NCBI GenBank assembly: GCA_045636425.1 | Contig: JAZTXM010000013.1 | Span: forward strand, 86,500-150,499 | DNA length: 64,000 nt | Origin: Clostridia bacterium | GTDB taxonomy: Bacteria; Bacillota; Clostridia; UMGS1883 | Reading direction: 5' to 3' | Part shown: positions 148 through 46,782 of the stretch, piece by piece | How the letters are laid out: every line of letters starts with the position of its first letter | Position numbering within the stretch: position 1 is the first letter of the stretch | Program-made: the position numbers and the translations under genes | Notes under the pieces: generated by a model | What the model saw: only the letters and a program-made list of their open reading frames with translations | Told to the model about the DNA's origin: nothing | Databases searched by the model: none

Positions 148-2013
148 TTAGTAGCCGTATTCGTAGTCGTATTCGAAATAATCCTCTGATTGAGGCTGTA
201 AATAATATTGAAGTTCCTCATCTGCTTGTGTAATAGCATCGGTTATTTCTCGGGGAGCTCCCGCGGATTTAAGATTTTTACTTAACTTATTAAGACTTAA
301 ACCGGATAACCAATCAAGCGTTTCGCTTTCTTCCCCTACTGAAATATAGTTGTGGGGAATGTCAATTTCTTTTTGTGGGGGTTGAATTTGTGACTTTCCA
401 TTTAACAAAAAGCAAAGTTCGTTGCCCTTAGTTAACGAGAGTGTTACATCTTCTGATTCTTTTGGTTTTATATTTGATTCAAGAGTCAGTTTTAAGTCAG
501 ACACCAACGATGCAATTTCTCCCGTTGCAATGCTCTTTATTTGCTCCTTTACAAAGTCTGTAAGTTCAAGGCTGATTTTGCCATTGAATATTCCATTTTT
601 TGAGTCTTTTGTATTATATTCCGAAACGATTTTTGCAAGCTTGTTTCCTGCGGCGGTTATGTAAAACGTTCCGGATTTTTTATCACCTGAAGTCCTTCCA
701 TTTCCCTCAAGACTTACGGAGCTTAAAAAGCCTGCACCGGCATTAATTTTCATTGCATAATCTTTTCCTGATTCCAATGAAATTGATGAAAAAGAAACTC
801 CGTCCTTCTCAAGCCCGAAACCTACCAAATCTCCTGCATTGTTTACCCAAATGTTAAAGCGGATAAGCTCCTCCCTGTCCCCTTGTGTGTTTTCGGCTTC
901 AGAAATGATTTCGTCGATTCCGAAAATCATTTCTGAATATACACTTTCAAAATCAGCATCAACTGCGTCTAATTCACAAAATTCTCTGATAATATTTTTT
1001 ATTTCATTATCTGTTTTTACTTCTTTCAGAAATGCAACAAGCATTTTCCTAAGGAGCTCCTCATTTACCGATACGGAAAGCTTTGTGCAGCTTTGTTTAA
1101 TATCGCCTGCCTTCAGTTTTTCTGTGTCTTCCGATACATTGTCCACACTGTCGATCACACTGCAAATGTACTTATAGAGTAGACTTTGGGTTGTTTTCTC
1201 ATCAGGGATGAGGTCCATAATCTCGCAAAGAGATTGAAACTCTGCTGAATCCATAAGTGCCTTATACGCATAAAAAGGGTTGTCATAGTAATCATAACTG
1301 TCAAATACAATCTTGATTGCTTTGTTATTAATTTCAGGGATATCAAAGTAAATTCCACTGTCATCTATTGCGGTATTCAAGGAAAGAATCTTTTTTCCGT
1401 TTATTGATGCATCTATTTCAGAAGAAATATCCGTTCCAACTCTGGCAGATTCTCCTGAAAATGTTATCTTTTTAATCCAATCTATCTTATCTGTAATATC
1501 ATCTAATTCGTTCACGTCGGCAGCTTCAAGAATGTCATAAAACCCACTTCCGAATTGAAGTGTTACTTCACCTTTCTCCTTTATATCGCCAAAAAGCGAG
1601 TTTGAGTCTGAAATAGCTGATAAGGTGGCACCAATCTCATCGGTGGAATCCTTTATTTCACGCTTAACAACTACCTTGAAGTAGTCTTCAGGGGAATAAT
1701 AGAGCTTTTGCGCCATGTTTTTGATAACAGGAGCAGCATACACTATTATGGATGACAGCAGTATTAACACTGCGGCAATTATAACAGGTCTGTGCCATTT
1801 TTTACGAGGCTTAGGTGCGGGTGTTGCGGCAACGCTTTCCAAATTTTCTTGTGTCACAACCGGGTGTTGAAGATTTATATTTCCGTCTAAAGCTTCAGCT
1901 TCAATCTTTGGGTCCCCACCTAACAAATCTTCAGTACGATTAACGCGCTTTCCGCACGACTGGCAGAATTTATCGTTTTCATTTAATAATCTTCCGCAAT
2001 TTTCACAAAACAT
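148..2013 (-). CDS. Membrane protein with N-terminal zinc ribbon (hypothetical)
   Basis: 621-aa ORF. N-terminus has CxxC...CxxC (MFCENCGRLLNENDKFCQSCGKR). A hydrophobic TM segment (IIAAVLILLSSIIVYAAP) precedes a large extracytoplasmic region. No catalytic motif recognised. Confidence 0.5.
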   Translation of the reverse strand: MFCENCGRLLNENDKFCQSCGKRVNRTEDLLGGDPKIEAEALDGNINLQHPVVTQENLESVAATPAPKPRKKWHRPVIIAAVLILLSSIIVYAAPVIKNMAQKLYYSPEDYFKVVVKREIKDSTDEIGATLSAISDSNSLFGDIKEKGEVTLQFGSGFYDILEAADVNELDDITDKIDWIKKITFSGESARVGTDISSEIDASINGKKILSLNTAIDDSGIYFDIPEINNKAIKIVFDSYDYYDNPFYAYKALMDSAEFQSLCEIMDLIPDEKTTQSLLYKYICSVIDSVDNVSEDTEKLKAGDIKQSCTKLSVSVNEELLRKMLVAFLKEVKTDNEIKNIIREFCELDAVDADFESVYSEMIFGIDEIISEAENTQGDREELIRFNIWVNNAGDLVGFGLEKDGVSFSSISLESGKDYAMKINAGAGFLSSVSLEGNGRTSGDKKSGTFYITAAGNKLAKIVSEYNTKDSKNGIFNGKISLELTDFVKEQIKSIATGEIASLVSDLKLTLESNIKPKESEDVTLSLTKGNELCFLLNGKSQIQPPQKEIDIPHNYISVGEESETLDWLSGLSLNKLSKNLKSAGAPREITDAITQADEELQYYLQPQSEDYFEYDYEYGY

Positions 2014-2149
2014 AATTATTTCCTCCCTCTTTTTTGGGTTCTCTATAAGATAATTATATTATATTCTTACATATTTTGTCAAGGATTGTATAAAGAATAA
2101 TCAAAGCCAACCGACAAACGGTTGGCTTTGATTATGGGATTAATATATT

Positions 2150-2526
2150 TTAATAATATTTTCTGTCGCTCATATCCTGAACACTGCGAAGTGCTTCACC
2201 GAAACGTTGGAAGTGAACTACCTCGCGTTCTCTCAGGAATTTAATGGGTTCAATTACATCGGGGTCATCTGCAAGGCGAAGAATATTGTCGTAGGTCGCT
2301 CTCGCTTTTTGTTCTGCTGCAAGGTCTTCCGTAAGGTCAGCTATAACATCAGCTTTTGACTGAATGTATGCTGCTGTCCATGGAACACCTGCCGCCGACG
2401 CAGGATAAATACCTGTGTTATGATCAACATAGTATTTATCAAAGCCCGATGCTTTGATTTCTTCGGGGGTAAGGTTGCGTGTTAACTGATACACAATAGT
2501 ACCAATCATCTCAAGGTGGGCAAGTT
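2150..2526 (-). CDS. cotJC: Spore coat protein CotJC (manganese-catalase family), 3' segment of a gene split by an intervening element
   Basis: The translation (...TEELAHLEMIGTIVYQLTRNLTPEE...DLAAEQKARATYDNIL...FLREREVVHFQRFGEAL) matches the C-terminal two-thirds of CotJC / Mn-catalase. The reading frame is open upstream of the annotated Met as far as a stop just inside the element junction. There is no N-terminus here. Confidence 0.75.
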
Positions 2527-2870
2527 CTTCCGTGCCTGAATCCGAGATGATTTTGCTTCCTTATATTTATTGAATCTTTTTTATGTAGCAATCAAGTGTA
2601 AAAGTTAAAATACAAGGTAAGAAAAAGATGATTTTAAGGTTATTTTATCTGGTTTGGGCATAAATCGATTCATCTTACATGTATATTAATGGGAGTAATT
2701 TAATTATTGATGAAAAAACATTCAACGTTGGTTATGTGATAGCAATATTTAGTACTAGTACTAGTCAATAATGACAAAAGAAAGTTGGAATATGTATTTT
2801 ATGTGAAATATATTGTGTTTGGTGGAGAAATATGGTATAATATATAAAAAACAAGGAAGGAAAATGAAAT

Positions 2871-3341
2871 ATGAAAAGAATTGTTGCTATTTTAATGACT
2901 GGATTGATTTTATTAACTTTGTCTGCTTGTGGACATGAACACGATGTTAATGTTGGTATATGTTCTACTTGTGGAGAATTTCAAAATCAAGATTTGGTAA
3001 CATCAATAAAAAACAAACTTTCGGAAGCAAATAGTGAACTTAATATAGCATTGTCGTATATGAGCAGCAGTAATGACAATAATTCAACAGTATATAATGC
3101 CATTATCAATATGCAAACATACATAGATAATTCAAAAACATATTTGAATGAAGCAAAGGATATGTGTGGCGAATATAAAGAATTAAATAGTACAAAAAAT
3201 GCCATAAATACTGCTATTAATAAAATACCATCTATTCCATCAAATAGTAGTACAAGTTCATTAGAGAATTATTTGGACAATTTGAAATTATACGTTGCTG
3301 CATTAGCAGAGGCACAATTAAAAATTTTATATGTTAAATAA
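2871..3341 (+). CDS. Lipoprotein (hypothetical), element cargo
   Basis: Signal peptide with lipobox (LLTLSAC). RBS GGAAGGAAAATG upstream. Asn/Ser-rich mature part. Confidence 0.5.
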   Translation: MKRIVAILMTGLILLTLSACGHEHDVNVGICSTCGEFQNQDLVTSIKNKLSEANSELNIALSYMSSSNDNNSTVYNAIINMQTYIDNSKTYLNEAKDMCGEYKELNSTKNAINTAINKIPSIPSNSSTSSLENYLDNLKLYVAALAEAQLKILYVK

Positions 3342-3358
3342 TTAGGAGTTAGATTGGT

Positions 3359-3769
3359 ATGAAGAAATATTTTTTAGTTGGTTTTATAACTTTAATATTA
3401 TTGGTAATGTGTGGTTGTGGTAATACCCAACACGAATATAAAATGGGGAATTGGTCAACAGCAAGAAATGATGCTGCTGACAACTTAGCAAGTGCACGTG
3501 AAAAATATGTTGGTGAGTATTATTCCTTTACAGGAGAACTGACATATATTGCTGAGGGGTATATTGCAGTTGACGAAGTAAATCCAGGAAAATATACTTC
3601 AGGTGTTACCTGTACTACCAAAGATAAAGATTTGTGTGATATAATTTTAGGCCTTAAAAAAGGTGATATGGTTACAGTAAAGGGAAAGATTACTGACATA
3701 GAACATGATGCATTAGGAAATACTGCTCAAATGGATATGGATGTTTATGAAATTATAGAAAAGGATTAA
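3359..3769 (+). CDS. Lipoprotein (hypothetical), element cargo
   Basis: Signal peptide with lipobox (LLVMCGC). Follows the previous gene after 17 nt. Confidence 0.5.
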   Translation: MKKYFLVGFITLILLVMCGCGNTQHEYKMGNWSTARNDAADNLASAREKYVGEYYSFTGELTYIAEGYIAVDEVNPGKYTSGVTCTTKDKDLCDIILGLKKGDMVTVKGKITDIEHDALGNTAQMDMDVYEIIEKD

Positions 3770-3780
3770 GGAGAATTTAT

Positions 3781-3999
3781 ATGCCTGTAATTTTTAGAGA
3801 TTATTGCACGTGTGGAAAATGCAAAAAAGAGTTTGAATGGGTAAGATTTGACTTGATTAGAACATCATCGTATGAAGTACAAACAATACCTAATGAACCT
3901 AAAGCCTATGTAATTAACCAAGATGGTAACAATTATGAACTTTCGGTTGTATGCCCATTCTGTGATTTTGAAAATATTTTTACTTATGAGGATAAGTGA
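3781..3999 (+). CDS. Small Cys-rich protein (possible zinc ribbon)
   Basis: 72 aa with CTCGKC...CPFCDF. RBS GGAGAATTTATATG. Confidence 0.35.
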   Translation: MPVIFRDYCTCGKCKKEFEWVRFDLIRTSSYEVQTIPNEPKAYVINQDGNNYELSVVCPFCDFENIFTYEDK

Positions 4000-4125
4000 A
4001 AAATTTGTTAAAAGTGACGAATTTTTATGCAGTTTTGATTAATTTTAATTATTTTTAGCATTTAACATTCAACTTAACATTGAGATTACAACATTAAAAA
4101 ATTTCGTCACTTTTTTTCGTTTCTA

Positions 4126-4160
4126 CTTATTGCGAAATTAGAAAAAATGTAGTATAATAT
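4126..4160 (+). promoter_or_regulatory. Sigma-A-type promoter (TTGCGA, 17 nt, TATAAT)
   Basis: The sequence ttgcgaaattagaaaaaatgtagtataat has near-consensus -35 and -10 boxes with a 17-bp spacer. Confidence 0.5.
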
Positions 4161-4164
4161 AATC

Positions 4165-4348
4165 ATAACAGATTTGTTATTGGTCGTATGAGTACGACAT
4201 CGGCACACTTATAGTTGTTATATAAGGTGGTTGATGGTTGGTGGTGGTCTTGCTGATAGGTCAGCAAGTTATATGAGAATTATAATAGAATAATGCCCTA
4301 TGGGGGTTGTTTGAAATGTGCCTTACCTTTGGTTAGGCACATTTTTTG
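4165..4348 (+). ncRNA. Candidate small RNA of about 180 nt inside the cotJC-intervening element
   Basis: A strong promoter (4126-4160) is followed by about 180 nt with several hairpins (gtcgta/tacgac; cttgctga/tcagcaag). It ends in an intrinsic terminator, aatgtgcc...ggcacatt plus a T-run. Only 8- and 19-codon ORFs are present. Confidence 0.3.
4313..4348 (+). terminator. Rho-independent terminator
   Basis: An 8-bp GC-containing stem (aatgtgcc / ggcacatt) followed by tttttgtgc. Confidence 0.5.
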
Positions 4349-4630
4349 TGCTTTTATATAGATAATATTTTTTCAGGGGGTGGTCTATGGCAGAGTGTTA
4401 AATATAAGACCTTTTGAGATTTGTGTTAGCGTTGAGCATCGGTGTCAAATAAGATGTAAAATTTTTTCAACCTAATTAATTTAATGTAGTTATGGGATAA
4501 AAGCGTCAGGTCGTACAAGAGAATTTTATGAATTTATCTTGTATGTGTCATGACAAGTCAGTTGAAGATATTGATGATTTTATGGAATTCAAATATTCCA
4601 GACTATATGAAATAAAGGGGGTGAAATGAG

Positions 4631-5161
4631 ATGTTATATGCTTATTTACTTGAAAATACTAAGAGAATTTATGAAATCAATAATAGACCTTTGTTTGAGT
4701 TGATAAGAGATTGTCACTTAAAGGACGAGCGTATCTTCATTGATTCAATGGGTGCAGATAGAACAGAATTTAAGGAGTTACAGTCAATTATTGCTGGTGG
4801 TGATACATTGATGATTCGTAGTATTATGGATATTGCTGATACGCCTATTGAAATTGTGAATTTGCTTGAATGGTTTGGTAGTCGTGGTATAGAGATTGTT
4901 TCAACACACGAGCCTGACTATGATTATAAAGAAAATTATAATTTAGTAGTAGATGTTATGGGTATGTCAGCAGAATTGACAGAAAAGAAAAGACGTTTAG
5001 GTATAGATAAGGCAAAGTTGGAAGGTCGTATGGGTAGAAAGTCTAATAAGGGAATTAAGGAAAGAGTTTTGAGATTGAAAGCAGCAGATTTTCCAAGGGA
5101 TGAAATTATGAAATTATGTGGTATTAGTTATAGTACGTATTATCGTATGATAAAAAATTAA
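4631..5161 (+). CDS. Resolvase-fold protein with the catalytic residues replaced, plus C-terminal HTH (pseudo-resolvase; possible regulator or directionality factor)
   Basis: Aligns to small serine recombinases (Hin / gamma-delta type) along its length. Arg8 and Ser10 are replaced (MLYAYLLENTKR versus GYIRVSTxxQ), and the DRLGR motif is replaced by MDIADT. The C-terminal helix-turn-helix is retained (ISYSTYYRMIKN). Confidence 0.5.
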   Translation: MLYAYLLENTKRIYEINNRPLFELIRDCHLKDERIFIDSMGADRTEFKELQSIIAGGDTLMIRSIMDIADTPIEIVNLLEWFGSRGIEIVSTHEPDYDYKENYNLVVDVMGMSAELTEKKRRLGIDKAKLEGRMGRKSNKGIKERVLRLKAADFPRDEIMKLCGISYSTYYRMIKN

Positions 5162-5645
5162 GATAATTTGCATCTAATTGCATCCGGATGAGTTAATGAT
5201 GGTCAAAATTAAATAAGATTGAAAAAATATGAATATATTTAATTTTGATATGTCAAGAACATTGTCAAATCAACATTTTTCATTTTGAAAATGATGGCAA
5301 GGGTAAATTGTTGATATAACAATCATTCAAGATGTTTTATAAAAATCAGGAAAATAAAAAGAACAGAATTTAAAAAACAAGGAAAGGAAACTCTAAAAAA
5401 TTTATGATTGGGGGTATCCTTTTGGGTAATAATTCATTTAGACAAGCAATGGCATCATATCTTTATAATGGTGATGTTATGTTTGATTCAAAAAAGAATT
5501 TTGTTCTTTCTACTGATGAAAAGAAAAGATTAACTAGTGATATAAAGATTGGTATATATAAAGAATTAAATAGTAAATCTCTCTTATCTAATGTTCAACT
5601 TTCTTTTCTGTTGGAAAAAGAAAAGAATAAAAATTTTAAAAATTA

Positions 5646-5675
5646 GTTGACTAAAGGGGTTGGTCACGTTAGAAT
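5646..5675 (+). promoter_or_regulatory. Putative promoter of the recombinase gene, with an overlapping imperfect inverted repeat
   Basis: TTGACT, 17 nt, TAGAAT. The elements tggtcacg and cgttgacca form an imperfect palindrome across the -10 box. Confidence 0.35.
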
Positions 5676-5721
5676 GCGTTGACCATCCCAAAGATAAAAT
5701 AGATAAGTGAGGTATAAGATA

Positions 5722-7422
5722 ATGGAATTTTTAAGTAATAGTAAAAATGTTTTAAGAAATTGTGTTTTATTAAATAATGGTATTAGTGATAAATCAAACA
5801 ATATAATTACAAATGTAATAAATGTTGCTGCTTATGCAAGGGTAAGTACAGATGCAGATGACCAAGTAAACAGTTTTGAATCACAGGTAAAATATTTTAC
5901 AGAATATATTAGTAAGCAAGAAAATTGGAATTTGGTTAAGGTTTATAGTGATGAGGGTATTTCAGGAACAAGCACAAAAAATCGTTTGGGTTTTACAACA
6001 ATGATTGATGATGCTTTGGCTGGGAAAATTGATTTAATACTAACAAAAGAGATTTCTCGTTTTTCAAGAAATGTTGCTGATACCATTCAATATACACGTA
6101 TGCTAAAAGAACATAATGTTGATGTGGTATTTTCATTGGATGGTATTGACACGAGAAATAGTGAATCAGAATTCAAACTTACTATTTTTTCTGCATTAGC
6201 ACAAGAAGAAAGCAGAAAGACATCAGAACGTGTCAAGTGGGGACAAAAAAGGCAGATGGAAAAAGGTGTTGTTTTTGGGCGCAATTTGTTGGGATATAAA
6301 GTTAAAGAGGGTAAGTTGTATCTTGTTGAGGATGAGGCTGAAATTGTCAAGTTAATTTTTCACAAGTACCTCAACGAGGGCAAGGGAACTCACATTATTG
6401 CAAGAGAACTCAAAGAAGAAGGCATAAAGCCTTACGACCCTGATGGCAGAGCAAAGTACAAGAATGATTGGAGTAACACTCAAATATTAAGGGTGTTGCG
6501 CAATGAGAAATATGTGGGTGACCTCTGCCAAAAGAAGACATATACAAAGGACTTTTTAGACCACAAAAAGCGTTATAATCGTGGTGTAGAAGAAAAGATA
6601 TACCTAAGAGACCATCATCCAGAGATTGCAATAATCAGTAGAGAAATGTGGGATGCAACACAGAAAGAGTTAGAAAGACGTACTACTACGGCAGAACAGA
6701 AGTCCAAGCATAGTAACAGATATTGGGCATCTGGAAAGGTTTTTTGTGGGGTATGTGGGGAAAGGTTTGTAAACAAGATTAAAAAGACGTCTGTGGGTAG
6801 TTCAAGAGCGTGGAATTGCTTAAATCACGTTAAGGCTGCAGCTTTTAGAAATGCAGAATGTTCTATGAGTGAGTGGGCAAATGATAAAAGTTTAAAGAAT
6901 ATTGTCTTATATATTCTTAATGTTCTTGTAGATAACAAAGAAGAATTAAAACAAGAAATAATCAAGGATATAGCAGATTTAAGCATTGAAGACAAAACAG
7001 GGTCTATTGATAAATTACAAAGCAAGATTGATAAGTTAGAAAAAAGCAAACTCAAGCTTATTGACATAAGATTAGCAGATGAAATAAAACAAGCAGATTT
7101 CTTAATAAAGCAAAAAGAGATTGAAGATGCTATTTCAAAGTTGTATGATGAATTAGATAAGGTAAAAGAGTTAGAGAATATTAAGCAAAAGCAACAAGAT
7201 AGAATGAATAGTATTATTGCTGAAATTGATAGGGTGCTGACCTTAAAGGATGAAGATTTAGACCACCTTTTAGGAACAGTTACACAAAGCATCACAGTAT
7301 ATGAAGGTCATACAGTTGTGGTAAGGCTTAAAGACATCCCATTTAATTTTAAGGTGGCTTATAAGTCAACAGGTAAGTTAGATACATATAGGACGGAGAT
7401 TTTAAGTCTTGAAGTGGTATAA
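5722..7422 (+). CDS. Large serine recombinase (SpoIVCA-like site-specific recombinase)
   Basis: N-terminal resolvase domain with AAYARVSTDADDQ, the catalytic Ser motif. A long recombinase domain is followed by a coiled-coil C-terminus. RBS GTGAGG lies 8 nt before the ATG at 5722. The ORF is open from 5707. Confidence 0.9.
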   Translation: MEFLSNSKNVLRNCVLLNNGISDKSNNIITNVINVAAYARVSTDADDQVNSFESQVKYFTEYISKQENWNLVKVYSDEGISGTSTKNRLGFTTMIDDALAGKIDLILTKEISRFSRNVADTIQYTRMLKEHNVDVVFSLDGIDTRNSESEFKLTIFSALAQEESRKTSERVKWGQKRQMEKGVVFGRNLLGYKVKEGKLYLVEDEAEIVKLIFHKYLNEGKGTHIIARELKEEGIKPYDPDGRAKYKNDWSNTQILRVLRNEKYVGDLCQKKTYTKDFLDHKKRYNRGVEEKIYLRDHHPEIAIISREMWDATQKELERRTTTAEQKSKHSNRYWASGKVFCGVCGERFVNKIKKTSVGSSRAWNCLNHVKAAAFRNAECSMSEWANDKSLKNIVLYILNVLVDNKEELKQEIIKDIADLSIEDKTGSIDKLQSKIDKLEKSKLKLIDIRLADEIKQADFLIKQKEIEDAISKLYDELDKVKELENIKQKQQDRMNSIIAEIDRVLTLKDEDLDHLLGTVTQSITVYEGHTVVVRLKDIPFNFKVAYKSTGKLDTYRTEILSLEVV

Positions 7423-7497
7423 ATAAAAGGGCAAAGCATACTGAAAACAGTAGGCTTTGCCTATCTTTGTATAAAGGAGCAAAATCATCGCTGATAG

Positions 7498-7683
7498 ACC
7501 TATATCATTCAAAGTAGACTTTGTTATTTCGTTAGGCATGCTGAAGCGTTGACTGAGATAACGTAACGATGCTCCGAGTTCCCCGTCGGGGCCACCATAC
7601 TGACTCATTATAATTTGTGCCATTTTAGGGTTTGGGTTTTTTATTTTAATCGGAAACTGTAACTTTTTTTCATATATCCACAT
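7498..7683 (-). CDS. cotJC: Spore coat protein CotJC, 5' segment (N-terminal 62 codons)
   Basis: MWIYEKKLQFPIKIKNPNPKMAQIIMSQYGGPDGELGASLRYLSQRF...TLNDIG matches the CotJC N-terminus. Homology stops at the element junction and the frame runs into element sequence. Confidence 0.75.
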
Positions 7684-7686
7684 AAT

Positions 7687-7950
7687 TTAACTCCTTTCTT
7701 TTTCCCAAGTCCAAGGGTTCTTTGACCATTGCCACGGAAGTTTATTCGGAGTTTGTGTTGCAGTTAATGGTCCGTATTTTTCCTCAAATTCTTTTCTTAA
7801 GGATTTGGCATTGCGAACAGTTTCGGTGTAAAGCTTGAGAGCACGTTCGCAATTGGGGTGAGTGTTAAGATAAAGCTGCAGGTCAAGCGCAAGGAAATCT
7901 GCCTCCTGTACTTTTTTAAGAAGGTCTCGTCTGTCATTACATTCTACCAT
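7687..7950 (-). CDS. cotJB: Spore coat protein CotJB
   Basis: 87 aa. A/FLALDLQLYLNTHP...YGPL...PWTW matches the CotJB family. It lies immediately upstream of cotJC. Confidence 0.8.
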   Translation of the reverse strand: MVECNDRRDLLKKVQEADFLALDLQLYLNTHPNCERALKLYTETVRNAKSLRKEFEEKYGPLTATQTPNKLPWQWSKNPWTWEKERS

Positions 7951-8279
7951 AATTTCCTTGCCCCCTCTTTTGTATTGAATTCATTTCCGTAGACACCTAA
8001 AGGCTTATCCAGGGACGGAAATGCTGTTCCGCGTTCCAATGCCTTTTCCCTACTATACGGATTTTCGTACTTTTGGTACGGAACGTATGCATAGGCAAGC
8101 GGATAATTATCATGAATTCCGCAGGATGCTGTTTCCTCAAGCGGAACAAGCTGCATATTAAGCAAGTCTTTCATGCTGTGTTTTCTTCCTTTCCTAAACG
8201 TTATAGCGGGGAGTTCCCCGCTATTTATCATATTCAACACAGCCTTTTTTTGTGAAATGAAAAACAGACAAGCAATCAT
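7944..8279 (-). CDS. cotJA: Spore coat-associated protein CotJA
   Basis: Contains the AYAYVPYQKY...PSLDKP motif typical of CotJA. First gene of the cotJABC operon; its start may be internal. Confidence 0.6.
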   Translation of the reverse strand: MIACLFFISQKKAVLNMINSGELPAITFRKGRKHSMKDLLNMQLVPLEETASCGIHDNYPLAYAYVPYQKYENPYSREKALERGTAFPSLDKPLGVYGNEFNTKEGARKLW

Positions 8280-8308
8280 ATTGCTTGTCTGTTTTTGTTG
8301 TTTTAGTT

Positions 8309-9274
8309 TTATTTTTTCTGGATAAGATGAACTCCGAAACCACCGAATTCTTCTGCAAGATAGATGAACTTTCTTGTTCCATCGTCATTATATGTAGCAC
8401 TTTCTTCGTTGAACTTAACACCTTTTGCACCAAGATGGTAAATAGCTCTTTCAACGTTATTGGTAAGAATTGCAATATGACCGCACTTTCCGGGACCCAT
8501 TGACTTCATTACCTCGAACTGAGAACCAACGAACATACCCTTTGCACTTTCTTTTTCAATATCCTTACCCATAAGGAGAGAAAGCATATTTGCGGTAGTC
8601 TTTGCCTGCTCCTCACTTTCGTGGTTAATACCGATATGTCCGATTTCAAGACCAAGCATTGTGCTTACGGATTTCTTGGTAAGGTTTGTAATTTCATCCC
8701 ACTGGTCATTATCAATAAAGCTCTCTTTAACCATGAAGCTACCGCCGCAAGCAATAATTTTATTGCAACCGAGGTAATTATTAACGTTGTCAAGACTAAC
8801 GCCGCCTGTGGGCATAAACTTAACGTTGCCATAGGGTGCTGACATAGCCTTAATCTTGTCAAGTCCGCCGCTCTGCTCAGCAGGGAAGAATTTTACAACC
8901 TTAAGACCAAGCTCAAGTGCCTGCTCAATTTCAGAAGGAGTTGTACAACCGGGAAGCGGAGTAACACCCTTTTCAAGACACCATGAAACAACCTTGGGGT
9001 TAAAGCCGGGGCTTACGATAAACTTAGCACCTGCGTCAAGCGCTCTCTGTGCCTGCTCAATTGTGAGAACAGTACCTGCACCCACAACCATATCGGGATA
9101 AGCCTGAGTGATTGCACGGATTGCATCCTCAGCAGCATCTGTTCTGAATGTAACCTCAGCTGCTGCAAGACCGCCGTCAATAAGAGCTTTTGCAAGCGGT
9201 ACAGCCTTAGAAGCATCGTTAATTTTTATAACCGGAATAATACCGATGTTGTAAATCTGTTTTAACATATCCAT
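8309..9274 (-). CDS. eda: 2-dehydro-3-deoxyphosphogluconate (KDPG) aldolase with a C-terminal VOC-like extension
   Basis: The N-terminal roughly 210 aa match KDPG / KHG aldolase (IIPVIKINDASKAVPLAKALIDGGL...FMPTGGV). An extra C-terminal domain of about 110 aa is present. Confidence 0.75.
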   Translation of the reverse strand: MDMLKQIYNIGIIPVIKINDASKAVPLAKALIDGGLAAAEVTFRTDAAEDAIRAITQAYPDMVVGAGTVLTIEQAQRALDAGAKFIVSPGFNPKVVSWCLEKGVTPLPGCTTPSEIEQALELGLKVVKFFPAEQSGGLDKIKAMSAPYGNVKFMPTGGVSLDNVNNYLGCNKIIACGGSFMVKESFIDNDQWDEITNLTKKSVSTMLGLEIGHIGINHESEEQAKTTANMLSLLMGKDIEKESAKGMFVGSQFEVMKSMGPGKCGHIAILTNNVERAIYHLGAKGVKFNEESATYNDDGTRKFIYLAEEFGGFGVHLIQKK

Positions 9275-9299
9275 TGTTTTTTATCTTCCTTTCCCCAAT

Positions 9300-10331
9300 T
9301 TATCTCTGCACACGACCGCTGCCGTCGCCGCCTACAAGATTGTCAACCTCACCGCGACTTACAAGATTCATATCGCCGGGAATTGTGTGCTTAAGAGCTG
9401 ATGCAGCAACACCGAATTCAAGAGCATCCTTGAAGTTCTTTCCGTCAAGCATACCGCAAATTACACCGCCTGCAAAGCTGTCGCCACCGCCTACACGGTC
9501 AACAATGGGGCAAATTCTGTATTCTCTTGAATGATAGAATTCCTTTGTGTCTCTTGAGTAGATACAAGCAGACCAGCCGTTATCGGAAGCAGAGTGAGAA
9601 ACACGCAGAGAAGAAATTACATATTCAAAGTTAAACTTTTCAACCATCTGCTCAAATATACTCTTGTAGCCTGCAAGTTCAAGCTCGCCGCTTGTTACAT
9701 CTGTATCACCGGGCTTGAATCCGAGAACCTTTTCTGCGTCTTCTTCGTTACCGATACATACATCAACGTACTGCATAAGATTTGTCATAATACGCTGAGC
9801 CTTTTCACTTGACCAAAGTTTCTTTCTGAAGTTAAGGTCACATGAAACTTTAACACCCTTTGCCTTAGCAGCTTTAAGAGCAGCTTCTGTAAGTTCTGCA
9901 GCCTGGTCTGAAACGGCGGGAGTGATACCTGTAAAGTGGAACCAATCACAACCGTCAAAAATCTTATCAAAGTCGAAATCTTCCGCCACAGCAGTTGAGA
10001 TGGAAGAATGTGCTCTGTCGTACACAACGTTGGATGCACGCATGGAAGCACCTGTCTCAAGGAAGTAAATTCCGAGTCTTTCACCGCCGCGAGCAATATT
10101 ATCTGTTTTAACATTCATTTTACGAAGAGCCGCTACTGCACATTCACCAATGGGGTTAGAGGGAACCTTTGTAACAAACTCTGCATCATGTCCGTAATTT
10201 GCGAGAGAAACCGCAACGTTTGCCTCTCCTCCGCCGTAGCAAACATCAAACTCGTCTGCCTGCAGGAATCTTTCATTGTTTGGAGTTGAGAGACGAAGCA
10301 TGATTTCGCCCATAGTAACTACCTTTGCCAT
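9300..10331 (-). CDS. kdgK: 2-dehydro-3-deoxygluconokinase (PfkB family)
   Basis: MAKVVTMGEIMLRLSTP... and the C-terminal GGGDSFAGG motif. SD AGGAGAGG before the internal Met at 10331. Confidence 0.8.
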   Translation of the reverse strand: MAKVVTMGEIMLRLSTPNNERFLQADEFDVCYGGGEANVAVSLANYGHDAEFVTKVPSNPIGECAVAALRKMNVKTDNIARGGERLGIYFLETGASMRASNVVYDRAHSSISTAVAEDFDFDKIFDGCDWFHFTGITPAVSDQAAELTEAALKAAKAKGVKVSCDLNFRKKLWSSEKAQRIMTNLMQYVDVCIGNEEDAEKVLGFKPGDTDVTSGELELAGYKSIFEQMVEKFNFEYVISSLRVSHSASDNGWSACIYSRDTKEFYHSREYRICPIVDRVGGGDSFAGGVICGMLDGKNFKDALEFGVAASALKHTIPGDMNLVSRGEVDNLVGGDGSGRVQR

Positions 10332-10471
10332 TTTAACCTCTCCTTTGAAAATCATAATATATTTGACAATATGTCATCTTAACTATATAATAACATTTAG
10401 ATGTATTCCAGTCAACAATTATATTTTGTTAAATATCAAATATATTACGATTTTGAAAAAGGAGAATTTTT

Positions 10472-11362
10472 GTGAAAAAAGTAAATAAAGCTCCCCTTAA
10501 ACAGGAAATTTTTAAAAACGAAAGCTCACTTATGACCATATTCCGTTCGAAAGTTCCGCTTTTAACGGATATATTTGAGGAACATCATCATACGGCTTTT
10601 GAAATTACCATGGTGCTCAGCGGCGAAGGTATATATGCTACAAAGTCTACGGAATTTACATTTAAAAGCGGTGATATATTCTTTTTCAGTACTGATGAAT
10701 TTCATTGGATAAAAAAACTCAATCACGATTCCGAATTTATAAATATTCATTTTGAGCCGAGATTTATCTGGTCAGACAATTTCGGATTTTCAAACAAGGA
10801 CCTAATAAGAATTTTCTTTAACAGAAAGAAAAAACCACTTAACAAGATTTCATTTAAAACTGACTCCGCAGAAACAATAAAAGACCTGATATTTAAAATG
10901 GAAAATGAAATATCCTTAAAAAAGAATGAGTATGACACAATGCTAAAAATACATTTGGTAAATATTCTTGTGGAAATGTTCAGATTTTTTGAAGAGAATC
11001 TTACACAAACGGATATTTCCTATAGCAGTCAGTCCCTAAGATATATGGAGGATGCACTAAACTACATTGACGAGCACTTAGAAAATGAATTAACGCTGGA
11101 AATGCTCTCGGATGTCGCACACATGAGCAAAACTTATTTTTGCAGTCAATTCCGAAAGCTTAACGGTATTTCCCCATGGGAATACATAACCATAAAGCGT
11201 GTGGAAAGAGCCATTACATATATTAAAACAACGGATATGTCAAAATCCGAGATAGCTTTCAAATGCGGTTATAATAACACTGCTAATTTCTACTATGCTT
11301 TTAGACGTGTTACAGGAAAAGCCCCCGGAGATTATAATAAATCAGCTGATGTTTTGCTTTAA
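10472..11362 (+). CDS. AraC-family transcriptional regulator (cupin plus HTH)
   Basis: The C-terminus has a typical AraC HTH (ISPWEYITIKRVERAITYIKTT...GYNNTANFYYAFRRVTGKAPGDY). Confidence 0.75.
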   Translation: MKKVNKAPLKQEIFKNESSLMTIFRSKVPLLTDIFEEHHHTAFEITMVLSGEGIYATKSTEFTFKSGDIFFFSTDEFHWIKKLNHDSEFINIHFEPRFIWSDNFGFSNKDLIRIFFNRKKKPLNKISFKTDSAETIKDLIFKMENEISLKKNEYDTMLKIHLVNILVEMFRFFEENLTQTDISYSSQSLRYMEDALNYIDEHLENELTLEMLSDVAHMSKTYFCSQFRKLNGISPWEYITIKRVERAITYIKTTDMSKSEIAFKCGYNNTANFYYAFRRVTGKAPGDYNKSADVLL

Positions 11363-12064
11363 AACGCCAAGCAGCTTTTTTTCAATCCTCGATATCTGAA
11401 CCTGGCTTACACCCATTATTCTTGCGACCTCGCTTTGTGTTTTTTCTTTATAGTACCGGAGGAGAAGAATCTGTTTTTCCTTGACAGGTAATTTCTCTAT
11501 TGCCTGCTTTAATGCAATTGATGTTAAAACCCCCTCCTCATTATGCTGCCTTTGGGAATGAAGCTTGTCTATTAAAAGCATGGGGCTGCTTTCGCTATCG
11601 TTAACCGTCTTGTAAAGGGACTCTGTAGGTTGCGTTGCTTCAAGCGAAAGCATAACCTCGTCGGTGGTTTTACAGATTGCCTCTGCAATTTCCTTTATGG
11701 TAGCCTCTCTTCCCTTTTCATTGCTTATTTTTTCTGCTGCAGCCTTTGCCATTGCCGCCGTTTCCTTCAAAGATCGGCTCACTTTAATTATACCGTCATC
11801 CCTTAGAAATCTGCGTATTTCTCCTAAAATCATTGGAATTGCGTACGTGGAAAATTCTACGTTGAAGCTTGTATCAAATTTATTTATTGCTTTAATAAGT
11901 CCGATTGCTCCGATTTGAAATAAATCATCGGATTCTATTCCCCTGCCCGAAAATTTTCTTACAACACACCATACCAAGCCTTTATTTTGAACTACAAGTC
12001 TTTCTAATGACTCTTTATCTCCGGATTGTGCCAATGAAATTAAACGGTAACATTCTTCTTTCAT
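11342..12064 (-). CDS. sigF: Sporulation sigma factor SigF
   Basis: 240 aa with sigma-70 regions 2 to 4. Sits immediately downstream of spoIIAB. Confidence 0.9.
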   Translation of the reverse strand: MKEECYRLISLAQSGDKESLERLVVQNKGLVWCVVRKFSGRGIESDDLFQIGAIGLIKAINKFDTSFNVEFSTYAIPMILGEIRRFLRDDGIIKVSRSLKETAAMAKAAAEKISNEKGREATIKEIAEAICKTTDEVMLSLEATQPTESLYKTVNDSESSPMLLIDKLHSQRQHNEEGVLTSIALKQAIEKLPVKEKQILLLRYYKEKTQSEVARIMGVSQVQISRIEKKLLGVLKQNIS

Positions 12065-46331: not shown

Positions 46332-46407
46332 TGGTGAGCCATCGGAGATTCGAACCCCGGACAACTTGATTAAAAGTCAAGTGCTCTGCCGACTGAGCTA
46401 ATGGCCC
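46332..46407 (-). tRNA. tRNA-Lys (UUU)
   Basis: Cloverleaf with encoded CCA; anticodon loop cuUUUaa. Target of the att copies at 28464-28508. Confidence 0.85.
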
Positions 46408-46412
46408 ATATA

Positions 46413-46489
46413 TGGCTGGGCTGGCAGGATTTGAACCTGCGGATGCCAGAGTCAAAGTCTGGTGCCTTAACCGACTTGGCTACAGCCCA
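46413..46489 (-). tRNA. tRNA-Gln (UUG)
   Basis: Acceptor stem TGGGCTG/CAGCCCA; anticodon loop cuUUGac; CCA encoded. Confidence 0.8.
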
Positions 46490-46526
46490 ACATAAACTAT
46501 GCCGGAATGCAACTCAGGTGGAAAAG

Positions 46527-46604
46527 TGGGGTGGATAGAGGGACTCGAACCCTCGGCCTCTAGAGCCACAATCTAGCGCTCTAACCAACTGAGCTATACC
46601 CACC
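46527..46604 (-). tRNA. tRNA-His (GUG)
   Basis: Extra 5' G(-1); acceptor GTGGGTA/TATCCAC; anticodon GTG. Confidence 0.8.
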
Positions 46605-46610
46605 ATAAGT

Positions 46611-46687
<77 letters not shown>

Positions 46688-46708
46688 ATTTATTTTGTGG
46701 CAAAAAAG

Positions 46709-46782
46709 TGGAGCGGGTGATGGGAATCGAACCCACCTATCCAGCTTGGAAGGCTGGTGTTCTACCAATGAACTACACCCGC
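46709..46782 (-). tRNA. tRNA-Gly (UCC)
   Basis: GCGGGTGTAGTTCAATGGTAGAAC-type sequence; anticodon TCC; discriminator U. Confidence 0.8.

Follow-up and report, generated by a model that had tools for sequence, protein, structure and literature searches.

A spore-coat gene of a Clostridia bacterium, cotJC, is split by a 4,964-bp element that encodes a large serine recombinase (LSR). The gene lies in the window, the whole 64,000-nucleotide stretch of DNA that was analysed. We consider it fairly probable that a small, non-phage LSR element has inserted into cotJC and is excised in the mother cell by the LSR, aided by a recombination directionality factor (RDF), to rebuild the gene.

A 4,964-bp element splits cotJC within a glycine codon

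The cotJ operon and the borders of the element are arranged in the window as follows.

7944..8174, minus strand: cotJA, first gene of the cotJ operon (ATG at 8174; Pfam CotJA, 7.3e-16)
7687..7950, minus strand: cotJB (Pfam CotJB, 1.3e-26)
7499..7683, minus strand: cotJC 5' part, ATG at 7683, codons 1-61 and GG of Gly62 (...TLNDIG); dN/dS 0.019 against an intact orthologue
7470..7520, minus strand: attL, host half-site (..TTGAATGATATAGG) and element half-site P' (TCTATCAGCGATGATTTTGCTCCTTTATA), from empty-site alignment and inverted repeats
2535..7498, no strand: intervening element, 4,964 bp, from blastn break points against the empty site L083 and a composition shift
2515..2565, minus strand: attR, element half-site P (TATAAGGAAGCAAAATCATCTCGGATTCAGG) and host half-site (CACGGAAGAACTTGCC), from empty-site alignment and inverted repeats
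2150..2534, minus strand: cotJC 3' part, which opens with the third base of Gly62 and continues with TEELAHLEM... as far as the stop at 2150; dN/dS 0.022 against an intact orthologue

The start of cotJA was chosen by comparison with the 76-aa CotJA of the syntenic locus L083. On the minus strand, the first part of cotJC stops with the GG of codon 62 (7499), and the second picks up at 2534. The break had been placed within a few bases in the earlier note, except that the C-terminal part begins at 2533/2534 and not at 2526. The element has gone in at this GG, which lies within the Mn-ligand motif DIG/TEE(L)AH(L)E (slash, break) as part of its glycine codon, and the unexcised 5' part runs on into the element as a 93-aa ORF (7402-7683). 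When the halves were joined in silico at AGG, they gave a 570-nt ORF for a 189-aa protein matching Pfam Mn_catalase over residues 1-183 (7.8e-55), bearing out the earlier proposal that they rejoin into one full-length CotJC of the Mn-catalase type. The exact joined protein did not occur among 15 billion proteins, and the alignment to an uninterrupted cotJC of a relative, which the earlier note had suggested, identified a 189-aa CotJC (P0121) in L083 that is 97% identical to it. Each half is intact, and strong purifying selection acts on the two (dN/dS 0.025 for the split gene against an intact orthologue, at dS 0.83).

The gene order in L083 is AraC, PfkB, aldolase, cotJA, cotJB, cotJC, and a Zn-ribbon protein of 619 aa. 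In blastn, window 11400-7498 aligned with L083 2285-6186 (90.5%), and window 2537-17 with L083 6183-8675 (83.4%). Therefore, the insert measures exactly 4,964 bp, and the overlap, AGG(T/C), amounts to 3-4 bp. The interruption of cotJC by a serine-recombinase element of about 5 kb, initially proposed from the sequence, was thus confirmed as an in-frame interruption with precise borders and an empty site in a relative. The insert is lower in G+C (0.26-0.32 over most of its length) than its flanks (0.37-0.42), shows a GC skew opposite to theirs, and carries terminal inverted repeats (2540-2565 and 7470-7495; 26 nt, 85% complementary) at most 5 nt from both junctions. The reconstructed attP, GCAAAATCATCTCGGATTC-AGGT-CTATCAGCGATGATTTTGC, has its centre of symmetry at AGGT, and nothing but GG is invariant across all attL and attR sites.

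The element encodes an LSR and a candidate RDF

The following features were recognised inside the element.

5722..7422, plus strand: LSR, 566 aa, 'AAYARVSTD' (Pfam, PHROG and PDB matches)
5647..5692, plus strand: LSR promoter, sigma-70-type TTGACT-17-TAGAAT, with co-varying arms kept in L001-L006
5422..5646, plus strand: small ORF, 74 aa, TTG start, core IKIGIYKELNSKSLLSNVQLSFLL; candidate RDF by synteny with the LSR
5315..5323, plus strand: TATAACAAT, which fits the SpoIIID-box consensus of C. difficile, KRTAACARK, and is kept in L002-L005
4631..5161, plus strand: degenerate small serine recombinase with C-terminal HTH (res176), 176 aa (Pfam Resolvase, partial, profile positions 37-143, and HTH_23)
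4130..4630, plus strand: conserved non-coding backbone segment, with a promoter TTGCGA-17-TATAAT (4130-4158) at its start
2871..3999, plus strand: variable cargo from the ORF list, lipoprotein-like ORFs 2871-3341 and 3359-3769, and a 72-aa CxxC...CxxC ORF 3781-3999

The LSR contains all three Pfam domains of this class (Resolvase, 1.7e-34; Recombinase, 2.5e-22; Zn_ribbon_recom, 1.4e-5), and matches a PHROG integrase (6e-119) and, in its catalytic domain, PDB 3g13 (7e-41). It is convergent with the cotJC 5' part and ends 76 nt from the junction, as the earlier note had recognised in placing a large serine recombinase at one junction, and has a hairpin terminator downstream (7418-7473). An inverted repeat, TTGGTCACG / CGTTGACCA, flanks the -10 box of the LSR promoter on both sides and is a putative operator.

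In 68 of 79 loci, minimal elements of 2.4-3.3 kb included, the LSR is immediately preceded by a homologue of the small ORF, the longest version of which starts at 5404 in the window; solely from this synteny, the product of the small ORF is regarded as a candidate RDF. In its AF2 model, residues 31-51 and 57-70 form a helical hairpin (pLDDT above 90). The ORF matched no Pfam or NCBIfam family, and no similarity to any known family or fold was detected. About 100 nt upstream of it, TATAACAAT might be a SpoIIID box, given the consensus from C. difficile (PMC5025042), but with 19 KRTAACARK matches in the window against 9.5 expected it is a weak lead only.

The catalytic residues of res176 are gone (R8 to Y, S10 to L, R68 to D, R71 to D in alignment to Gin and gamma-delta resolvase), and its product is probably a DNA-binding accessory protein or regulator. 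The non-coding segment shows 92% mean column identity across three elements; the stretch 4166-4350 folds stably (z = -4.5) and closes with a terminator-like hairpin and a T-run. The segment, which had no Rfam match, is a candidate sRNA or leader. Region 2852-4126 is without counterpart in L002 and L004, which are collinear elsewhere. For the cargo ORFs, PADLOC gave no match and PHROG none that was informative, and no phage (by PHROG comparison) or conjugation genes were found in the insert.

One cotJC site is used across Clostridia

The canonical cotJC junction, at the DIG/TEE codon boundary, was present in at least 69 of 83 Clostridia loci carrying a relative of the LSR (43-85% identity for the relatives, 43-100% over the loci counted), and the hosts of these same-codon elements comprise dozens of gut and rumen species. 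Among the 14 loci without it, 10 are cut off about 400 nt or less from where the LSR match ends on its 3' side; an eleventh, L081, has only a divergent, uninterrupted Mn-catalase gene. One LSR clade across Clostridia thus uses one cotJC site, and because the identical junction recurs in dozens of independent genomes, it is not due to chance. The elements range from 2.4 to 11.7 kb, the smallest (2.4-3.3 kb) consisting of the small ORF and the LSR and nothing else, and in L050 cotJC is in three pieces. Joined cotJC ORFs were intact (174-218 aa) in 15 of 27 two-junction loci, the 15 being those whose join was readable by script and the 174-aa ORF (L013) being clipped by the locus end.

The source is a single 159-kb contig, and the window taken by itself would be compatible with misassembly. 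A chimeric contig, or a natural fission or truncation of cotJC in this lineage, is nevertheless hardly credible, as dozens of independent assemblies, a complete isolate genome among them, show the same architecture with base-precise junctions, matched inverted half-sites lie at the junctions, and close relatives have the 189-aa uninterrupted gene.

The res176 copies in L002-L004 are 96% identical where CotJC is only 62-73% identical, the LSRs of L029 and L032 are 95% identical against 72% for CotJC, and in several locus pairs the LSR is more similar than CotJC. The element is thus polymorphic, as the empty site shows, and by these comparisons has moved between hosts; therefore, a recent selfish insertion too would leave the halves intact.

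Excision in the mother cell is plausible

In 32 of 68 loci, the sense strand upstream of the small ORF carries a mother-cell-type (sigma-E/K-type) -10 box, CATAYANT. The antisense strand gave 4 as a control and shuffled sequences gave 4.8 +/- 2.1, an enrichment of roughly seven-fold, and in one subgroup a sigma-E-like GATTATT-N13-CATACATT is invariant there. Within the subfamily to which the window belongs (LSR identity of 58% or more), no CATAYANT box lies just upstream of the small ORF; in L011 and L015 the only match is farther away, about 260-270 nt upstream of the motif, and the SpoIIID-box-like 9-mer is the one further hint, a weak one. Neither an excised circle nor a rejoined gene was seen, and searches with attP patterns gave nothing real in metagenome or viral contigs. 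The proposal that the element is excised in the mother cell as in skin therefore stands in part: the intact halves, their dN/dS, the conserved candidate RDF and the -10 box in relatives argue for it, while the window's subfamily lacks a recognisable promoter and no excised form was found. The family evidence, though indirect, together with analogy to known systems, supports regulated excision and makes it plausible. One precedent is skinCd, with its constitutive LSR and sporulation-driven RDF; in addition, cotJ-type operons of C. difficile depend on sigma-K (PMC3789822).

The lack of a recognisable sporulation promoter in the window's subfamily, the LSR promoter of sigma-70 type, the existence of an empty site in a close relative, and the horizontal movement and mosaicism would suit a purely selfish element without a developmental programme, to which the conserved DIG/TEE stretch offers a safe place to insert because cotJC is dispensable during growth. 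cotJC would then be inactivated, or rebuilt only when the element sporadically excises on transfer. In C. difficile, the Mn-catalase coat paralogues of CotJC are redundant (PMC11222575), so loss of cotJC might be tolerated. We hold this account unlikely, though worth serious attention, for several reasons. The halves are intact wherever the join is readable and under purifying selection, the -10 box is enriched in relatives, and the minimal elements hold only the recombination unit, so that there is no cargo to benefit and there are no transfer genes. The experimentally studied LSR elements in mother-cell genes (skin, SPbeta, gin, skinCd) are, moreover, all excised during sporulation.

The LSR appears constitutive, with its sigma-70-type promoter and operator-like inverted repeat, and the dead resolvase-HTH and RNA-like non-coding segment suggest further regulation. 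This would fit a reversible population-level switch, not bound to the mother cell, in which excision and re-integration in a fraction of growing cells yield heterogeneous coat composition or cargo expression, as reported for the yabG 'yin' element with its growth-phase-dependent excision (PMC10747680). Such a switch is very unlikely here, since no attP-bearing metagenome or viral contigs were found, and cotJC is a mother-cell-only gene, so that switching in growing cells would have no obvious phenotype. LSR reactions are also strongly directional, and a non-replicating circle re-integrates inefficiently.

Under mother-cell excision, the element would stay integrated in vegetative cells and the forespore, where the LSR, made from its own promoter, could not alone recombine attL with attR. 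In the sporulating mother cell, the small helical protein would act as RDF, and the LSR would recombine attL and attR at the central GG, producing a 4,964-bp circle with attP and an intact 189-aa cotJC behind cotJA-cotJB. The forespore (germ-line) copy would retain the element, which would so be inherited. The dead resolvase-HTH and the non-coding segment probably regulate the recombination module, and the lipoprotein cargo may be exchangeable passenger DNA.

Comparison with known intervening elements

The earlier remark that a cotJC-interrupting element is not a described case was too strong. Abe 2013 names cotJC as an intervening-element target, as cited in bioRxiv 10.1101/2021.11.22.469490, and a 'skin-like' element in cotJC has been mentioned for Laceyella sacchari (bioRxiv 10.1101/2022.02.25.481979), a member of the order Bacillales. 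These one-line mentions share the target gene and the idea of an intervening element. The literature searched contains no description of the LSR clade in Clostridia, of the one conserved site that it uses, of the partner ORF or of the minimal elements, and the family-level picture appears to be new.

Cyanobacterial heterocyst elements (e.g. the fdxN element with serine recombinase XisF) are likewise developmentally excised DNA in genes needed only in a terminally differentiated cell, and the three-piece cotJC of L050 parallels the multiply interrupted genes known there (PMC11249958). They belong to another phylum, with other recombinases and target genes and no sequence relation.

The skinCd element in C. 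difficile sigK is also a Clostridial element in a mother-cell gene with an LSR near a junction; this LSR, CD1231, is constitutive, has a sigma-A promoter and adjoins the junction, and the RDF CD1234 is acidic, of about 72 aa, without database similarity and under sigma-E/SpoIIID control (PMC5025042). Both elements have a sigma-70-type LSR promoter, and the 74-aa partner ORF and SpoIIID-box-like 9-mer of the window have counterparts in skinCd; the small ORF is set beside CD1234 by description, its RDF role and regulation being candidate ones. In contrast to skinCd (14.6 kb, 19 genes), the window's element is in cotJC, spans 5 kb, has no prophage-like genes, and its partner ORF directly abuts the LSR.

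In B. subtilis, skin (SpoIVCA/Skr, sigK) and SPbeta (SprA/SprB, spsM) are excised in the mother cell by LSR-mediated attL x attR recombination, the forespore keeps the element, and the integrase-RDF pair is a portable unit (PMC4191935, PMC5499854, PMC6957869). The former is a 48-kb defective prophage and the latter a 134-kb active one, whereas the element described here is without phage genes; of the skin-like architecture first proposed for it, the split gene and the LSR by the junction hold and the content does not. The gin element, which interrupts gerE in Bacillus cereus ATCC 10987, is likewise no prophage and also sits in a short mother-cell gene. Its LSR GirC and small RDF GirX suffice for excision, and its additional serine-recombinase genes parallel the dead resolvase of the window. 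It differs in size (28.6 kb), host class (Bacilli), its three recombinases and the sporulation-specific expression of its recombinase (PMC5595907), and the cotJC family is smaller (2.4-11.7 kb) and spread across many Clostridia. Taken together, the window's element resembles the non-prophage gin, or a bare integrase-RDF unit, more than it does skin.

A 4,964-bp insertion divides cotJC into two parts

The earlier note had proposed that the spore-coat gene cotJC is interrupted by a 5-kb recombinase element, and this was borne out, the claimed coordinates being correct to within a few bases. The cotJ genes of the window are arranged as follows.

Genes of the cotJ operon
7944-8174, minus strand: cotJA (Pfam CotJA, 7.3e-16)
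7687-7950, minus strand: cotJB (Pfam CotJB, 1.3e-26)
ORF start at 7683, minus strand: 5′ part of cotJC, first 62 residues (...TLNDIG), then unrelated sequence
TEELAHLEM... to stop at 2150, minus strand: 3′ part of cotJC, 5 kb from the 5′ part on the same strand

Joining the two parts in silico through a shared AGG generated a 570-nt ORF with a 189-aa product, in which residues 1-183 were matched by Pfam Mn_catalase at 7.8e-55. The joined product contained both Mn-ligand motifs (TEE.AH.E and AAE..A), and the cotJA-cotJB-cotJC operon context was intact. Many full-length CotJC proteins were returned when it was used as a query, the best being a 189-aa protein with 97% identity (P0121) encoded at a syntenic locus with an uninterrupted cotJC (L083). 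The two halves therefore rebuild one CotJC, as had been predicted, and the existence of the full-length orthologue rules out a naturally short CotJC. An exact look-up of the joined sequence in the protein collection gave no match, and exact matches to the split cotJC fragments and to the recombinase were confined to one NCBI contig.

The uninterrupted locus showed the same gene order as the window, namely genes for an AraC-type regulator, a PfkB kinase and an aldolase, then cotJA, cotJB, cotJC and the gene for a 619-aa zinc-ribbon protein. In blastn, window 11400-7498 corresponded to positions 2285-6186 of this locus at 90.5% identity, and the alignment continued from window 2537-17 at positions 6183-8675 with 83.4% identity. 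These break points define an insert of exactly 4,964 bp (2535-7498), with a 3-4 bp overlap, AGG(T/C). The G+C content of the insert was below that of the flanks, and its GC skew was opposite to theirs.

Synteny with the uninterrupted locus places a spoIIAA-spoIIAB-sigF operon immediately beyond the AraC-type gene (window 11342-12064 and beyond), confirming the host as a spore former. A bidirectional terminator with a 17-bp stem (8260-8296) ends the aldolase gene, and just downstream of it a GC-rich hairpin, GCGGGGAACTCCCCGC (8205-8225, minus strand), is located in the presumed 5′ leader of cotJ. Five tRNA genes are clustered at 46335-46782.

Attachment sites

The termini of the element are 26-nt inverted repeats with 85% complementarity (2540-2565 and 7470-7495). 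Excision would generate an attB junction in the rejoined cotJC, AATGATATAGG(T/C)ACGGAAGAACTTGCC, and an attP junction in the circle, CATCTCGGATTCAGG(T/C)CTATCAGCGATGATT. Inverted half-sites were present at both ends of the element, with AGG common to both, and the reconstructed attP of the window consisted of 19-nt arms around AGGT.

In the related elements described below, all junctions were identically placed, 3′ of GAY-ATH-GG (...DIG) and 5′ of ACN-GAR-GAR (TEE...), in the stretch encoding the first Mn-ligand motif, which is the most conserved part of cotJC. The element-side arms were imperfect inverted repeats with the consensus GCAATwTCGATACnGATAyAGG / TrTATCGGTnnnnAAATTGC. The reconstructed attP sites were symmetric, and the GG at their centre comprised the only bases invariant across all attL and attR sequences. 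We infer from this alignment that GG is the crossover dinucleotide, where cleavage would occur; because GG is non-palindromic, the polarity of the att sites is fixed. A 2-bp core is usually quoted for serine integrases, and here the element-side and host-side half-sites share approximately 10 bp beside the putative crossover. In most attR sequences of the family (e.g. L032, ...TACCGATATCGGT|ACC...), the inner part of the P arm repeats the ACnGATATnGG of the host, the coding sequence for (T)DIG.

Gene content of the element

The insert has ORFs on the plus strand only, antisense to cotJC, and its features are listed below from the attR side to the attL side.

Features of the element
attR side, approximately 315 bp: conserved end sequence
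2871-3999, plus strand: cargo, two lipoprotein-like ORFs and a small CxxC ORF
4130-4158: sigma-70-type promoter, followed by approximately 470 nt of non-coding DNA
4631-5161, plus strand: resolvase-like protein with a C-terminal HTH, 176 aa
5422-5646, plus strand: small ORF
5722-7422, plus strand: large serine recombinase (LSR), 566 aa, with Resolvase, Recombinase and Zn_ribbon_recom domains; a hairpin lies 3′ of the gene

The LSR generated Pfam hits on PF00239 (1.7e-34), PF07508 (2.5e-22) and PF13408 (1.4e-5; 25.8 bits against a cut-off of 25.3), and its YARVST motif and Arg and Ser residues were invariant in an alignment of 14 sequences. Its gene is preceded by a promoter, TTGACT-17-TAGAAT. 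In the window (5647-5692), the -10 box is located between the inverted-repeat arms TTGGTCACG and CGTTGACCA. These arms co-vary, changing together in two related elements (L001 and L006), which suggests that they form an operator that would repress the integrase gene.

The 176-aa resolvase-like protein, when aligned with Gin and gamma-delta resolvase, had R8, S10, R68 and R71 replaced. Having lost these four key catalytic residues, it is not expected to be a recombinase; it is nevertheless conserved (96% identity) across several related elements and is probably a DNA-binding accessory or architectural factor, or a regulator, rather than an enzyme. Within the non-coding DNA upstream of its gene, the first 185 nt or so (4166-4350) folded at -59.4 kcal/mol (z = -4.5) and ended in a hairpin with a T-run; this RNA is a candidate sRNA, or a candidate leader for the recombination module. 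An Rfam scan of the element found nothing near threshold. The entire non-coding stretch (4130-4630) was 92-95% identical in three elements, the LSRs of which were only about 80% identical.

Two segments of the window were shared with L002 and L004, the loci of the nearest relatives of the element: 2493-2851 (89.5-94% identity), comprising the attR-proximal 315 bp or so and the adjoining host cotJC, and the stretch from the promoter at 4130 through to attL (85-87%). The intervening segment, 2852-4126, was replaced by different genes in each of the two, including a gene for a CyanoTRADDas_TM protein in L002. The element is thus built from a fixed backbone, for recombination and regulation, and a slot in which the cargo can be exchanged. 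The cargo ORFs of the window had no PADLOC match and no informative PHROG match, two of them giving sub-threshold PHROG matches (E 0.004-0.006) to families of unknown function.

Searches with Pfam and PHROG detected no phage, conjugation or replication genes in the element, and the only significant PHROG matches were to integrase/invertase, for the LSR and the catalytically degenerate resolvase. A prophage or prophage remnant was rejected on the lack of phage genes and the absence of the attP pattern from IMG/VR, and an ICE, IME or mobilizable element was rejected since the six ORFs contain no relaxase or type IV secretion domain.

A family of related elements in Clostridia

Database relatives of the LSR number in the thousands, the closest being 74-85% identical. 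In two of these, from NCBI assemblies with otherwise unrelated neighbourhoods, Mn_catalase was likewise split, a small ORF was present, the LSR abutted the N-terminal fragment, and cotJB and cotJA lay beyond that fragment. A scan with one genome per species yielded at least 589 relatives, of which the best 80 (43-81% identical) were examined. Together with the window, L001 and L002 these made 83 loci, and at least one cotJC junction was found in 69. Among the 14 junction-free loci, 10 were truncated no more than about 400 nt from the 3′ end of the LSR match; L081, an eleventh, contained only a divergent, uninterrupted Mn-catalase gene.

The hosts of the best 80 of at least 589 relatives were all Clostridia (Lachnospiraceae, Oscillospiraceae, Ruminococcus, Butyricicoccus, Acetivibrio, Roseburia, Acetatifactor and Caldicoprobacter algeriensis TH7C1), the nearest LSRs in this set coming from 'Clostridia bacterium', Ruminococcus and Acetivibrio MAGs. 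Two cultured species, Ruminiclostridium papyrosolvens C7 (L080) and R. herbifermentans (L096), carried a canonical attR, with the 5′ cotJC fragment outside the DNA examined. In the complete isolate genome of R. herbifermentans (CP061336.1), two units of small ORF and LSR were located within 8 kb (1699-3605 and 9001-10957), with a divergent intact Mn-catalase paralogue of 229 aa between them; one unit abuts the canonical 3′ cotJC fragment at about 11204, from which the 5′ fragment is separated by over 9 kb.

Element sizes ranged from 2,437 to 11,709 bp (n = 27). Of the 27 two-junction loci, 15 had a readable join, and in these the joined ORFs were complete (174-218 aa), the 174-aa one (L013) being cut by the locus end; most unread joins reflect a fixed 186-nt 5′ extraction that mismatched another N-terminus, or a second insertion truncating the gene. 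The LSR was convergent with the 5′ cotJC fragment in 46 of 72 loci, including the window, and co-directional with the 3′ cotJC fragment in nine, and it was at the attR end in a few. Orientation variants included L042, L048, L051, L058, L072 and L074, and the LSR was at the attR end in L013, L014 and L063. As the att site and target are the same and yet the module of LSR and small ORF occurs at either end and in either orientation, the attP-integrase module has been rearranged in the course of the family's evolution.

The small partner ORF is the best candidate directionality factor

A short ORF was located directly 5′ of the LSR gene on the same strand in 68 of 79 loci (74 aa in the window), with the conserved core (L/I)K-x-GIYKELH-x3-LL(S/T)D-x-QL-x2-LL. 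In the smallest elements (L063, 2.4 kb; L035, 2.9 kb; L036, 3.3 kb), this partner ORF and the LSR were the only genes. The partner ORF had no meaningful match in Pfam, NCBIfam, PADLOC, PHROGs or, by Foldseek, the PDB, and its database relatives were all annotated as hypothetical. In an AlphaFold2 model built from 51 sequences the N-terminus was disordered, and helices 31-51 and 57-70 formed a confidently predicted hairpin (pLDDT >90), to which no solved structure was significantly similar. Recombination directionality factors (RDFs) are not known to have a fold in common. The partner ORF is the best RDF candidate, a putative role assigned from synteny, because it is small, lies next to the LSR gene and strictly co-occurs with it. 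Its counterparts in other elements would be CD1234 (72 aa, no homologues), from skinCd, together with SprB, Skr and GirX.

A second insertion site in cotJC

In Eubacterium sp. SUG2712 (L050), cotJC was found in three pieces (11860-11675, 5880-5650 and 949-776). The second split is at TEDMAA|EQKAR, in the second Mn-ligand motif, and the second insert is unrelated, being approximately 4.7 kb in size and carrying a 981-aa ORF, a 66-aa ORF and a 528-aa LSR with 25% identity to that of the window. Joining the three pieces in silico gave a complete 201-aa CotJC. Truncation at TEDMAA|EQKAR was also found in six further loci (L043, L060, L062, L064, L011 and L044). The second split, produced by an unrelated LSR element, indicates that cotJC has two independent LSR target sites.

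Evidence bearing on developmental excision

Whether the element is excised in a regulated manner in the mother cell, or is purely selfish and cotJC merely a tolerated landing site, was considered from the selection on the gene, the promoters of the element and its transmission. In favour of regulated excision, the split cotJC, compared with the intact orthologue, had a dN/dS of 0.025 at a dS of 0.83, the value being just as low in one half as in the other. On the sense strand 5′ of the partner ORF, CATAYANT, a -10 motif of the sigma-E/K type, was present in 32 of 68 loci; the corresponding numbers were 4 for the antisense strand and 4.8 ± 2.1 for shuffled sequences (maximum 10). In most of these loci the motif was 95-137 nt before the partner-ORF core and so immediately upstream of the start codon. 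The block GGATTATTTCAGAAAAGCATTCATACATTCTAA was essentially invariant in one Lachnospiraceae subgroup, with adjacent coding sequence only about 50% conserved; we take this block to be a good sigma-E promoter by the Bacillus consensus ZHATAXX-14-CATACAHT. The small ORF and LSR of this subgroup are close enough for co-transcription. The target operon is of a mother-cell-specific type, which is sigma-E dependent in B. subtilis. In C. difficile, cotJ-type operons depend on sigma-K (PMC3789822).

On the other side, in the subfamily of the window (LSR at least 58% identical), the CATAYANT box was not found just 5′ of the small ORF. It occurred in L011 and L015 only some 260-270 nt upstream of the partner-ORF motif, and otherwise there was only TATAACAAT, which matches the C. 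difficile SpoIIID box KRTAACARK, a 9-mer so common that the match is weak evidence. Scans 5′ of the small ORF for the SpoIIID box and for full sigma-E and sigma-K promoters gave marginal enrichment when five near-identical sequences of the window group were counted as one. Across the 64-kb window, CATAYANT occurred 39 times (23.7 expected) and KRTAACARK 19 times (9.5 expected), numbers reached in 0 of 100 shuffles; this excess may arise because mother-cell genes are concentrated locally.

Between elements with host CotJC at 62-73% identity, the 176-aa protein and the non-coding DNA flanking it were 95-96% identical, and LSR pairs were up to 95% identical where CotJC was 72%. These values point to transfer of elements between hosts, so that some insertions may be recent. 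LSR and CotJC divergence were correlated overall (r = 0.73; Mantel test, 0 of 2000 permutations), which fits either co-divergence or transfer restricted to related hosts. The attP pattern of the window subfamily had no match in JGI metagenome contigs or IMG/VR, and a degenerate family-wide pattern gave nine matches, all by chance and with no LSR nearby; this outcome is uninformative and should not be counted as negative, since minority junctions seldom survive in assemblies. On balance, we regard regulated mother-cell excision as fairly probable and a purely selfish element as rather unlikely.

Meaning and relation to known systems

Taken together, the observations can be read as revealing that gut and rumen Clostridia harbour an uncharacterised and very widespread family of DNA switches, minimal in size and developmental in function, a reading that we put forward tentatively, as somewhat short of probable. 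Such a family would comprise a dedicated LSR clade and a new RDF family with a helical core of about 40 aa, would be driven by mother-cell promoters, and would have co-diverged with its hosts, always at one and the same Gly codon in cotJC; another, unrelated LSR family at the second Mn-ligand motif would give a three-piece cotJC in some species, and cotJC would compare with sigK as a general hotspot for programmed rearrangement. If this is true, a functional coat gene is annotated as two pseudogene-like fragments in many uncultured gut and rumen Clostridia, which bears on censuses of sporulation genes in metagenomes. The family provides dozens of natural sets of LSR, attB, attP and candidate RDF at one conserved 40-bp site, and thus a comparative series for the co-evolution of serine integrases and RDFs; orthogonal tools for excision might also be drawn from it. 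With small ORF and LSR only, the 2.4-kb elements show how little such an element needs in order to persist. Three cultured species harbour members of the family, R. herbifermentans, R. papyrosolvens C7 and Caldicoprobacter algeriensis TH7C1 (L058), and in these the proposed mechanism is directly testable.

Skin elements interrupt sigK in B. subtilis and C. difficile (PMC4191935, PMC5499854, PMC6957869; C. difficile, PMC5025042), and SPbeta interrupts spsM (PMC4191935, PMC5499854, PMC6957869). Further cases are vfbin in spoVFB, vrin in spoVR, gin in gerE (PMC5595907) and yin in yabG (PMC10747680). Experimental demonstrations of programmed gene reconstitution in sporulation cover a handful of genes (sigK, spsM, spoVFB, spoVR and gerE), mostly in Bacilli. 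Galperin and colleagues described a skin-like element in cotJC of Laceyella sacchari (bioRxiv 10.1101/2022.02.25.481979), and insertions in cotJC, gerE, yaaH and yhbH have been attributed to Abe et al. 2013 in a passage of another preprint (bioRxiv 10.1101/2021.11.22.469490). The skin-like architecture proposed in the earlier note stands, the developmental excision that it proposed is plausible, and the novelty was overstated, cotJC having already been named as a target. Neither Mageeney 2020 nor Durrant 2022 mentions catalase or cotJ, and our literature search found no description of the Clostridial LSR clade, its single conserved site, the partner-ORF family or the minimal elements. Accordingly, the class of element, an intervening element in a sporulation gene, is already known, and the family-level picture may be new. 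Among the known systems, skinCd is the closest in regulatory logic, with a sigma-A promoter for the LSR and a small partner, and gin is the closest in its non-phage nature and its additional resolvase gene.
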